NCBI RefSeq assembly: GCF_055900595.2
Contig: NZ_CM148325.1
Reading direction: 5' to 3' (one strand)
Length of the DNA stretch: 64,000 nt
Part shown: in pieces, positions 16,460 to 16,575 of the stretch
How positions within the stretch are numbered: the first letter of the stretch is position 1
Layout: the number at the start of each line of letters is the position of its first letter
Notes under the pieces: generated by a model
The model's database searches: none
What the model saw: the letters and a program-made list of their open reading frames with translations, nothing else
Told to the model about the DNA's origin: nothing
Position numbers and translations under genes: made by a program

Positions 16460-16575
16460 CAGGAAGGCGGCAAGCGAGTGAATCCCCAGGAGCTTACATA
16501 AGTAAGTGACTGGGGTGAGCGAACGCAGACGCAGCACATGCAACTTGAAGTATGACGAGTATAACTGGCGCTACG
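16460..16575. repeat. ERIC (enterobacterial repetitive intergenic consensus) element
   Basis: Contains GTGAATCCCCAGGAGCTTACATAAGTAAGTGACTGGGGTGAGCG..., an imperfect palindrome matching the ERIC core; lies in the convergent panC/rpnC intergenic region. Confidence 0.7.

Follow-up and report, generated by a model that had tools for sequence, protein, structure and literature searches.

ERIC, short for enterobacterial repetitive intergenic consensus, is a textbook repeat and the basis of ERIC-PCR typing, and it occurs in known size classes, among them long forms with an internal insertion of ~70 bp. It is a non-autonomous, MITE-like repeat of 127 bp in Enterobacterales, with TA dinucleotides as its insertion target. 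These elements, also named IRU or RU-1, have been described by Sharples and Lloyd (1990), by Hulton et al. (1991) and by Wilson and Sharp (2006). According to reviews no transposase is known for ERIC, and duplication of the TA target at insertion is one of its traits (PMC2759123). The 127-nt E. coli consensus of Wilson and Sharp (2006) is reprinted in PMC2759123 (Table 1a), and one review credits the same authors with 14 ERIC loci found only in strains other than K-12.

Both elements considered below, one in the 3′ untranslated region (UTR) of panC and one in the leader of lpd, resemble ERIC/IRU/RU-1 in length (127 bp), terminal inverted repeats with TA ends, an end-to-end imperfect hairpin, intergenic position, co-transcription, multiple copies and variable presence between strains; they differ in nothing essential, only the lpd copy having degenerate termini and a consensus identity of 78%. 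The panC copy is of the canonical 127-bp form, unlike the long form found at the same panC-rpnC TA in O157:H7, with which it nevertheless has diagnostic bases in common. Yersinia ERICs, which according to reviews modulate mRNA decay by way of RNase E (De Gregorio et al., 2005), resemble the panC copy as co-transcribed hairpins beside a stop codon and have orientation-dependent properties, whereas the panC and lpd copies appear to have the orientation opposite to the destabilizing one. The REP/BIME sequences of E. coli are likewise transcribed intergenic palindromes, and REPs protect upstream mRNA from 3′ exonucleases, but REPs are ~35–40 nt long, unrelated in sequence and mobilized by RAYT-type proteins; neither ERIC copy is a ~35–40-nt unit with the REP consensus. 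The Correia/NEMIS elements of Neisseria and the RUP elements of the pneumococcus are MITEs that duplicate a TA target, end in terminal inverted repeats and give co-transcribed hairpins on which RNases act. They are, however, unrelated in sequence, and Correia RNA is cut by RNase III, whereas the one nearby RNase III site compared here, in the ahpC-ahpF gap of E. coli, lies outside the ERIC there.

Two complete ERIC elements near panC and lpd

The window, that is the whole stretch analysed, comprises 64,000 nucleotides of E. coli DNA (NCBI RefSeq assembly GCF_055900595.2, contig NZ_CM148325.1), reversed relative to K-12 numbering, and its panC-rpnC region is 100% identical to that of E. coli strain Z0117EC0005. 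The genes around the two elements are as follows:

14772–15569, + strand: panB (gene order agrees with the K-12 annotation)
15581–16432, + strand: panC (open reading frame; same gene in the RefSeq annotation of the identical strain)
16653–17573, − strand: rpnC (yadD; agrees with the K-12 annotation)
17847–18227, + strand: panD (agrees with the K-12 annotation)
35233–36657, − strand: lpd (agrees with the K-12 annotation)
36982–38874, − strand: aceF (agrees with the K-12 annotation)
38889–41552, − strand: aceE (agrees with the K-12 annotation)

The rpnC gene beside the panC element carries the annotation of a nuclease or putative transposase, but being a neighbour at a single locus does not count as evidence that it mobilizes ERIC.

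A 32-nt string, CTCACCCCAGTCACTTACTTATGTAAGCTCCT, has exactly two occurrences in the window and none in 100 dinucleotide-preserving shuffles (chance expectation 0). The first-pass annotation had reported this core as recurring in inverted orientation at 36732–36763, ~75–105 bp before the lpd start codon, and both points hold, the core lying 75–106 nt upstream of the ATG (36657). The two cores sit within the following elements:

16437–16563, + strand: ERIC in the panC 3′ UTR, in the convergent panC-rpnC gap (consensus match, fold, K-12 empty site)
16488–16519, − strand: 32-nt exact core of the panC copy (most conserved central part of ERIC)
36688–36814, − strand: diverged complete ERIC in the lpd 5′ UTR (consensus match, blastn, fold)
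36732–36763, + strand: 32-nt exact core of the lpd copy (exact string match)

Both are complete 127-bp ERIC (IRU, RU-1) elements. Each is 127 bp long and aligns with the consensus end to end and free of gaps over 127 positions, with 89% identity for the panC copy and 78% for the lpd copy; blastn of the consensus against the window returned the two with E values of 9e-45 and 8e-27, respectively, and found no third copy there. The panC copy contains the exact 44-nt central core of ERIC and is 94% identical to the Salmonella SeRU-1 copy. The likeness between the two reaches well beyond the 32 nt, with an inverted repeat of 82 nt (ungapped, 82% identical) and both flanks aligned by MAFFT. At non-core positions the consensus is matched at 81 of 95 in the panC copy and 67 of 95 in the lpd copy, against a background of 23.7 ± 4.3 over the rest of the window, in which the best unrelated site reaches 52. 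It had been proposed that the second copy should be abandoned if 36705–36785 failed to align with the consensus outside the core, and the 67 matching positions show that it does align.

The terminal inverted repeats of the panC copy read TATACTC...GAGTATA, and those of the lpd copy are degenerate (CATACCC...GGGTATG), the outermost base being altered on each side. Both copies are intergenic and in transcribed regions, the panC copy in the 3′ UTR ahead of the terminator and the lpd copy in the 5′ UTR, and ERIC as a whole is multicopy, occupying a median of 6–7 places per E. coli genome by megablast. The earlier placement of a near-complete ERIC at 16460–16575 was right as to identity and ~20 nt off as to limits; the stretch at 16566–16588 is the panC terminator hairpin and lies outside the element. 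The lpd copy, previously called partial, is instead of full length, although diverged. No Rfam family covers ERIC or the lpd leader hairpin, as searched with the window at gathering thresholds and with four lpd loci at E ≤ 1; the sole overlapping match was a sub-threshold hit to CssrA (26 bits vs. a gathering score of 93).

Two insertion sites of apparently different age

The surroundings of the panC copy are compact:

16430–16432, + strand: panC stop codon (the ERIC begins 4 nt after it)
16437–16438, no strand: left TA of the duplicated target (K-12 comparison)
16562–16563, no strand: right TA of the duplicated target (K-12 comparison)
16566–16588, + strand: panC intrinsic terminator hairpin, followed by ATTATTAATT (K-12 has the same hairpin)

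The empty site of K-12 reads TAATACT-TA-ACTGGCG (...GGCGTAATACT-TA-ACTGGCGC...) and the filled site of the window TAATACT-TA-[123 bp]-TA-ACTGGCG (...GGCGTAATACT-TA-[123 bp]-TA-ACTGGCGC...), so that the panC copy shows the TA target duplication expected for ERIC. The element ends 2 nt before the terminator hairpin, which has a T-rich tail, and since it lies between the panC stop codon and the terminator it forms part of the panBC 3′ UTR.

This insertion is absent from K-12 and most E. coli, and ~8–13% of complete genomes carry an ERIC at the site. A probe for the left junction found it in 426 of 5426 complete E. coli genomes, and the short form is present as a single piece in ~120 of the 5426. 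O157:H7 and other strains have a long ERIC form at the same panC-rpnC TA, with an internal insert of 71 nt that is single-copy and occurs in 612 of the 5426 complete genomes. The bases CAAGTTG and GGCGGC are found in the short copy of the window and in the long form and are missing from the paralogues, which indicates that both forms descend from one insertion event and that the 71 nt were gained or lost in place. The closest paralogue of the panC copy lies in the ybhJ-ybhI gap (98.4% identity), and further ones were found in the yeiS-preT interval and downstream of yafP. Judged from such comparisons, the panC copy appears to be a relatively young insertion.

The second element occupies the leader of lpd, which is organized as follows:

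36859–36887, − strand: lpd promoter, −35 TTTAAA/TTAAAA and −10 TAAAAT (consensus scan)
36833–36840, − strand: 5′ half of the leader basal stem, CCGGUGGU, which encloses the ERIC (minimum-free-energy fold of the whole leader)
36680–36687, − strand: 3′ half of the leader basal stem, ACCGCCGG (same fold)
36663–36666, − strand: Shine-Dalgarno sequence GAGG (predicted unpaired with or without the ERIC)
36655–36657, − strand: lpd start codon (open reading frame)

The promoter is sigma-70-like, with the −10 hexamer TAAAAT at 36864–36859 and a predicted start near 36852. A published lpd transcription start lies 195 nt upstream of the ATG (PMC2759082), and 36657 + 195 = 36852, in agreement with the scan. 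With a start at 36852, the ERIC takes up +39 to +165 of the independent lpd transcript with its 195-nt leader and ends 30 nt before the ATG, which bears out the earlier claim that a copy sits in the lpd leader. It is also contained in the aceEF-lpd read-through RNA, 3′ of the aceF terminator. A literature search found no report that links ERIC with lpd, aceF or lpdA; a paper on an ArcA-modulated small RNA was considered as a link to the lpd leader and rejected, as it concerns another locus.

The filled lpd allele occurs in 3432 of 5426 E. coli genomes, and ~1990 of the 5426 have an allele shorter by 117 bp, in which 31 nt (GATAATGGGCGTCATAAAAAAAACGTCAGAC) stand in place of 148 nt. K-12 and E. 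albertii both carry the lpd ERIC, each with a copy 99% identical to that of the window, whereas CFT073, O157:H7 Sakai and IAI39 lack it and have an aceF-lpd gap of 207 nt; these few reference strains (K-12 filled, the other three empty) are the ones that were checked. Presence therefore varies between strains at panC and lpd alike, as had been anticipated. Both lpd alleles are embedded in a spacer that is otherwise 99–100% identical across E. coli, compared with 97–98% for the flanking genes. The TA target of the lpd copy is masked, as its flanks have since changed (alleles that lack the ERIC have 31 nt where the filled one has 148 nt). The empty E. coli allele keeps arms of ancestral appearance, GGGCGT...ACGTCAGACC, that are gone from the filled allele, and is thus not a deletion derivative of the latter as it stands today. 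The lpd copy is more diverged than the panC copy and appears to be older.

The lpd leader loop across Enterobacterales

To place the lpd copy in a wider frame we compared 80 Enterobacterales lpd loci. Most have an aceF-lpd gap of 175–265 nt and no ERIC; an ERIC is present in 12 of the 80, complete in nine and partial or truncated in three, and a few loci contain remnants or other insertions. The common form of the leader, found in most sampled loci, is CCCGGTGG-at/ga-GGGCGT-[AT-rich, variable]-ACGTCaGACCCGCCGG, with the Shine-Dalgarno sequence following after ~20 nt. Across Enterobacterales the two stem halves, CCGGUGG and CCGCCGG, do not vary in sequence, and covariation therefore says nothing for or against their pairing. 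Wherever an ERIC is present among the sampled loci it lies in the variable loop of this leader and always in the same orientation. Carriers are E. albertii, Entomohabitans, Enterobacter sp. 10-1, a Raoultella metagenome-assembled genome, four Serratia species, Pectobacterium betavasculorum, Erwinia persicina (two strains) and Yersinia pekkanenii; in two other Pectobacterium species only the ERIC ends are left, as internally deleted remnants. Short alleles in Citrobacter, Cedecea and Leclercia (GGACGACGGGTATAAAT) were considered as remnants of ERIC ends and were not counted, as they also resemble the left arm of the leader, GGATGATGGGCGTAAT.

The identity of these copies can be set against that of the third codon positions of the adjacent lpd gene. 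Between the window and Enterobacter sp. 10-1 the ERIC is 93% and lpd third codon positions are 74% identical, the corresponding values being 83 and 73% for Entomohabitans and 80 and 61% for P. betavasculorum, so that in these three pairs the ERIC is better conserved than lpd third codon positions. Two other pairs show the reverse, Serratia grimesii with S. silvae (ERIC 67%, third codon positions 79%) and Enterobacter sp. 10-1 with Raoultella (66 and 79%), and their ERICs belong to different subfamilies, the Serratia copies being at the same junction. Different subfamilies at one site imply at least two independent insertions. A single ancient insertion followed by precise losses is contradicted by the two Serratia subfamilies at one junction and by the comparison of Enterobacter sp. 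10-1 with Raoultella, although it may apply in some lineages. Taken together, the TA beside the panC terminator hairpin and the lpd loop suggest that ERIC prefers TA targets in or beside dyad symmetry.

RNA hairpins, 3′ ends and possible effects on mRNA

As RNA, both copies form end-to-end folds, with energies of −54.2 kcal/mol for panC (z = −8.6) and −63.3 kcal/mol for lpd (z = −7.5). When the entire lpd leader is folded, CCGGUGGU and ACCGCCGG on either side lengthen the ERIC stem and the ribosome-binding site is predicted unpaired; it is predicted free in the ERIC-less leader as well, a leader whose fold is no better than that of shuffles (z = −0.7). The ERIC hairpin is evolutionarily maintained. 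Among 16 ERIC copies from nine genera, 92.3% of hairpin cells pair, compared with 31–40% when partners are slid, and compensatory double changes affect 21 of 35 pairs, compared with 4–9 when slid and 9.7 ± 1.9 when shuffled. The helix also has a strand asymmetry, with 66 G·U pairs vs. 4 A·C mismatches, and each copy is 7–20 kcal/mol more stable in one orientation, which is the sense orientation for panC and lpd. The two copies had been described as inverted, and so they are on the chromosome; relative to the sense mRNAs they have the same orientation, panC being on the + and lpd on the − strand, which is why both are transcribed in the more stable direction. The ERIC in the ahpC-ahpF gap lies the opposite way round in its mRNA and has the same strand asymmetry. 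The asymmetry is consequently a property of the whole family and points to a constraint on one single strand, either RNA or transposition DNA, and not to adaptation of two loci; covariation and asymmetry could reflect the needs of single-stranded DNA transposition rather than a function in RNA.

A transcript end has been mapped within the lpd element of K-12. Term-seq placed a 3′ end at position 127,845 (+), which is −67 relative to the lpd ATG, weak at 1412 and 2122 reads in two conditions, with a Rho score of 0.74 (not Rho-dependent), an intrinsic-terminator score of 6.2 (threshold 3.0) and a flanking sequence that is the ERIC itself (Adams et al., 2021; PMC7815308). Its position in the window is:

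36724, − strand: equivalent of the K-12 Term-seq 3′ end (K-12/window alignment and fold)

This is ERIC position 91, in a GAA internal loop 3 nt past the inner stem. No U tract follows the inner stem of the lpd copy, where the sequence is GCUAACGCCGCUGCGG, and an end left by a stalled exonuclease or by processing is therefore more likely than termination. A strong 3′ end in the pgk-fbaA ERIC (24,316 reads) lies 4 nt after the same inner stem (PMC7815308). That element has the same orientation in the mRNA sense, and the region of its 3′ end is nearly identical to the panC copy; for strains with the insertion, a panBC mRNA 3′ end is predicted near 16520. Neither ERIC is directly followed by a U tract of the kind that intrinsic terminators have, and a terminator scan found nothing within the ERIC, the sole terminator-like site near panC being 16566–16588, outside the element. 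An RNase III site reported at 639,695, between ahpC and ahpF, was considered as a cut in an ERIC and set aside, as it lies ~60 nt downstream of the element in that gap and so lends no support to nuclease action on ERIC.

We think it likely that the two ERIC insertions, young at panC and old at lpd, act as co-transcribed hairpins that block exonucleases or mark a processing point, with a modest effect on expression. The panC copy took as its target a TA that lies between the stop codon and the terminator hairpin of panC, and the lpd copy the AT-rich loop of a sequence-conserved leader hairpin, a loop that ERIC has struck more than once in Enterobacterales. The long ERIC hairpin may then serve, in a passive role, as a barrier to 3′-to-5′ exonucleases or as a processing point, and hairpin-ended fragments would remain: a panBC mRNA with the ERIC at its end, and a piece of the lpd leader, or of aceEF read-through RNA, that stops at ERIC position 91. 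The ribosome-binding site of lpd would stay free, and lpd translation would be little affected. By this account, ERIC hairpins may modestly alter the stability of panBC, lpd or aceEF RNA, and the effect could be nil.

As a discovery the finding is ordinary, given that the type of element and the strain variability of ERIC loci are already known, the repeat is in textbooks and the K-12 reference genome contains the lpd copy. Both loci are clean natural presence/absence polymorphisms in near-identical sequence beside the well-studied panBC and lpd genes. Together with the 3′ end mapped in the K-12 lpd ERIC, this makes them convenient test cases for effects of ERIC hairpins on mRNA. Specialists may find interest in the split of the lpd allele among reference strains, the short and long ERIC pair at one panC site, the conservation above synonymous sites and the recurrent occupation of a leader loop, as the repeated use of one hairpin loop bears on target choice by an element that has no known transposase.

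Both copies may instead be selfish or neutral passengers that sit in harmless places, a 3′ UTR and the loop of a leader hairpin, and have no measurable effect on expression, which we regard as possible while leaning against it. At each locus the filled and the empty allele are both frequent among healthy E. coli lineages, the Shine-Dalgarno region and basal leader stem of lpd are predicted unaltered by the insertion, and Pectobacterium has internally deleted remnants. The copies at the lpd site, however, exceed lpd third codon positions in conservation in the three comparisons with the window (93 vs. 74%, 83 vs. 73%, and 80 vs. 61%), and an RNA 3′ end falls inside the K-12 copy.

The same conservation above synonymous sites could be read as a sign that the ERIC in the lpd leader was co-opted to serve as a cis-regulatory RNA module, one that tunes independent lpd expression and with it the supply of the E3 subunit common to the pyruvate and 2-oxoglutarate dehydrogenase complexes, maybe by way of a small RNA from the leader. 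One site struck repeatedly and in the same orientation in four families fits such a role, as does the near-identity (99–100%) of the rest of the aceF-lpd spacer beside flanking genes at 97–98%, and the Term-seq 3′ end would bound a leader RNA of ~129 nt from the transcription start. We nonetheless hold co-option to be unlikely: the ERIC is missing from ~37% of E. coli genomes and from most of the genera sampled, the leader stem itself shows no covariation, and the conservation could stem from recombination or recent transfer. A more specific version is more doubtful still, namely that the AT-rich loop of the lpd leader is a specific and recurrent landing site of ERIC across Enterobacterales, used by at least two subfamilies in one orientation, and that the element then came under constraint because its hairpin shapes the processing of lpd-leader or aceEF-lpd read-through RNA. 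If true, the filled/empty polymorphism at lpd would amount to natural variation in how a central metabolic enzyme is regulated.

A destabilizing role of the Yersinia type would have a ribosome that ends at panC melt the base of the hairpin and thereby uncover, within the 3′ terminal repeat, a site for RNase E, leaving less panBC mRNA. The panC stop codon is just 4 nt from the ERIC, and the model has been set out for Yersinia enterocolitica in reviews (PMC2229807, PMC3184786, PMC10969869). It depends on orientation, however, and the panC and lpd elements appear to lie the other way round. The ERICs fused to gene 3′ ends read TATAC(T/C)CGTCAT... in the mRNA sense and have the AU-rich GAAUUAUUU in the 3′ arm; the panC and lpd mRNAs have their AU-rich stretch in the 5′ arm (UAAAUAAUUC in panC, the diverged UAUGGAUUUC in lpd), the naming of orientations being deduced from the gene-fused copies. 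Copies that overlap or abut stop codons are reportedly B-oriented by preference (De Gregorio et al., 2005). As the orientation is seemingly non-destabilizing, the RNase E model is probably not directly applicable at panC or lpd, and we give it little weight.

A role of the lpd ERIC in attenuating or terminating transcription within the leader is improbable, too. The intrinsic-terminator score exceeds its threshold and the end is not Rho-dependent (PMC7815308), but the stem is not followed by a U tract, the terminator scan finds none in the element and lpd downstream is highly expressed. That ERIC encodes a peptide is very improbable: a 42-amino-acid ERIC frame, embedded in a 107-amino-acid open reading frame at 16309–16632 (−), translates as YTRHTSSCMCCVCVRSPQSLTYVSSWGFTRLPPSCNLNYLEY and matches a frame noted by Delihas, but the longer frame is antisense to the panC 3′ end and has neither a promoter-like site nor ribosome-binding evidence, and the ERIC frame is a property of the repeat consensus, with the lpd copy lying in no comparable open reading frame.

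Elsewhere in the window, REP-like repeats distinct from ERIC lie at 25743–25780 and 52960–53123, and Rfam returns a match to naRNA4 at 52942–53019.

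Strand asymmetry of the ERIC helix

The two strands of the ERIC helix differ strongly: the 16 copies compared for helix pairing (alignment A6) contain 66 G.U pairs but only 4 A.C mismatches. This imbalance shows that one specific single strand is under constraint in every ERIC copy, irrespective of the direction in which the element is transcribed.

The lpd leader and its surroundings

Conserved blocks are found Enterobacterales-wide in the 5' UTR of lpd (GGATAGAACGxCCCGGTGG ... ACGTCaGACCCGCCGGA; sampled loci L008-L087), lying 20-90 nt upstream of the gene (window 36680-36687 and 36833-36840) and enclosing a hypervariable AT-rich loop. 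Since no Rfam family matches these blocks and covariation within them was absent across the Enterobacterales loci, they could form a stem in the RNA or serve as a DNA-binding site.

Once the ERIC indel is excluded, nearly all E. coli genomes share 99-100% identity across the aceF-lpd spacer (36658-36981); in the aceF and lpd coding DNA on either side, the window is only ~97-98% identical to K-12, CFT073, and IAI39. Immediately to the left of the lpd ERIC, the sense strand reads GGTTAGGGTATTACTTCA (36815-36834). Here, alleles filled by the element carry GGGTAT, whereas ERIC-less alleles carry GGGCGT. The GGGTAT of filled alleles resembles an ERIC terminus and is able to pair with the ERIC 5' end, ATACCC. 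Filled alleles also lack ACGTCAG, the right arm of the ancestral leader hairpin.

Variation in the panC-rpnC gap

The panC-rpnC gap (16433-16652) is hypervariable among E. coli, with five states observed in the window and at the loci sampled for this gap (L003, L004, L005, L092, and L094).

States of the panC-rpnC gap and where each was observed
State 1: empty, 73 nt; K-12
State 2: short ERIC; window
State 3: long ERIC, with a 71-nt single-copy internal insert and a 7-bp CAAGTTG duplication; O157:H7
State 4: 347-373 nt, with a duplicated rpnC 3'-end fragment; CFT073, IAI39, strain 2824
State 5: rpnC replaced by IS1; PSJ-23

In these three strains the duplicated fragment of state 4 carries the label "transposase" or "hypothetical protein" and is marked as partial. 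In the same spacer, a 22-nt indel relative to K-12 (16610-16631) lies ~20-40 nt beyond the rpnC stop codon, and more small differences from K-12 occur at the stop itself. RpnC is 306 aa long in the window and 300 aa in K-12, and identity of the rpnC flank to most E. coli is only ~92%.

Other genes, RNAs, and repeats

Four matches in the window score above the Rfam gathering threshold.

Rfam matches in the window
41555-41668, (+): tp2, 103 bits; pdhR-aceE spacer, on the opposite strand
52942-53019, (-): naRNA4, 73 bits; inside the REP/BIME cluster 52960-53123
53535-53604, (-): STnc40, 82 bits
59251-59340, (-): PssrA, 105 bits

REP-like repeats (motif GCCGGATGCGGCG...) are present at 25743-25780 as well as in that cluster, and belong to a repeat family separate from ERIC. 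Downstream of lpd, yacH (DUF3300; 33302-35161) is only ~70-80% identical to its counterparts in other E. coli strains and contains internal repeats (QQRDSARQRIQSA.PEQRQAFREKVQNQQRPLS, twice) together with His/Asp-rich runs. Within aceF, three tandem 300-nt repeats with 67-78% identity (37976-38887) match the three lipoyl domains of E2p.
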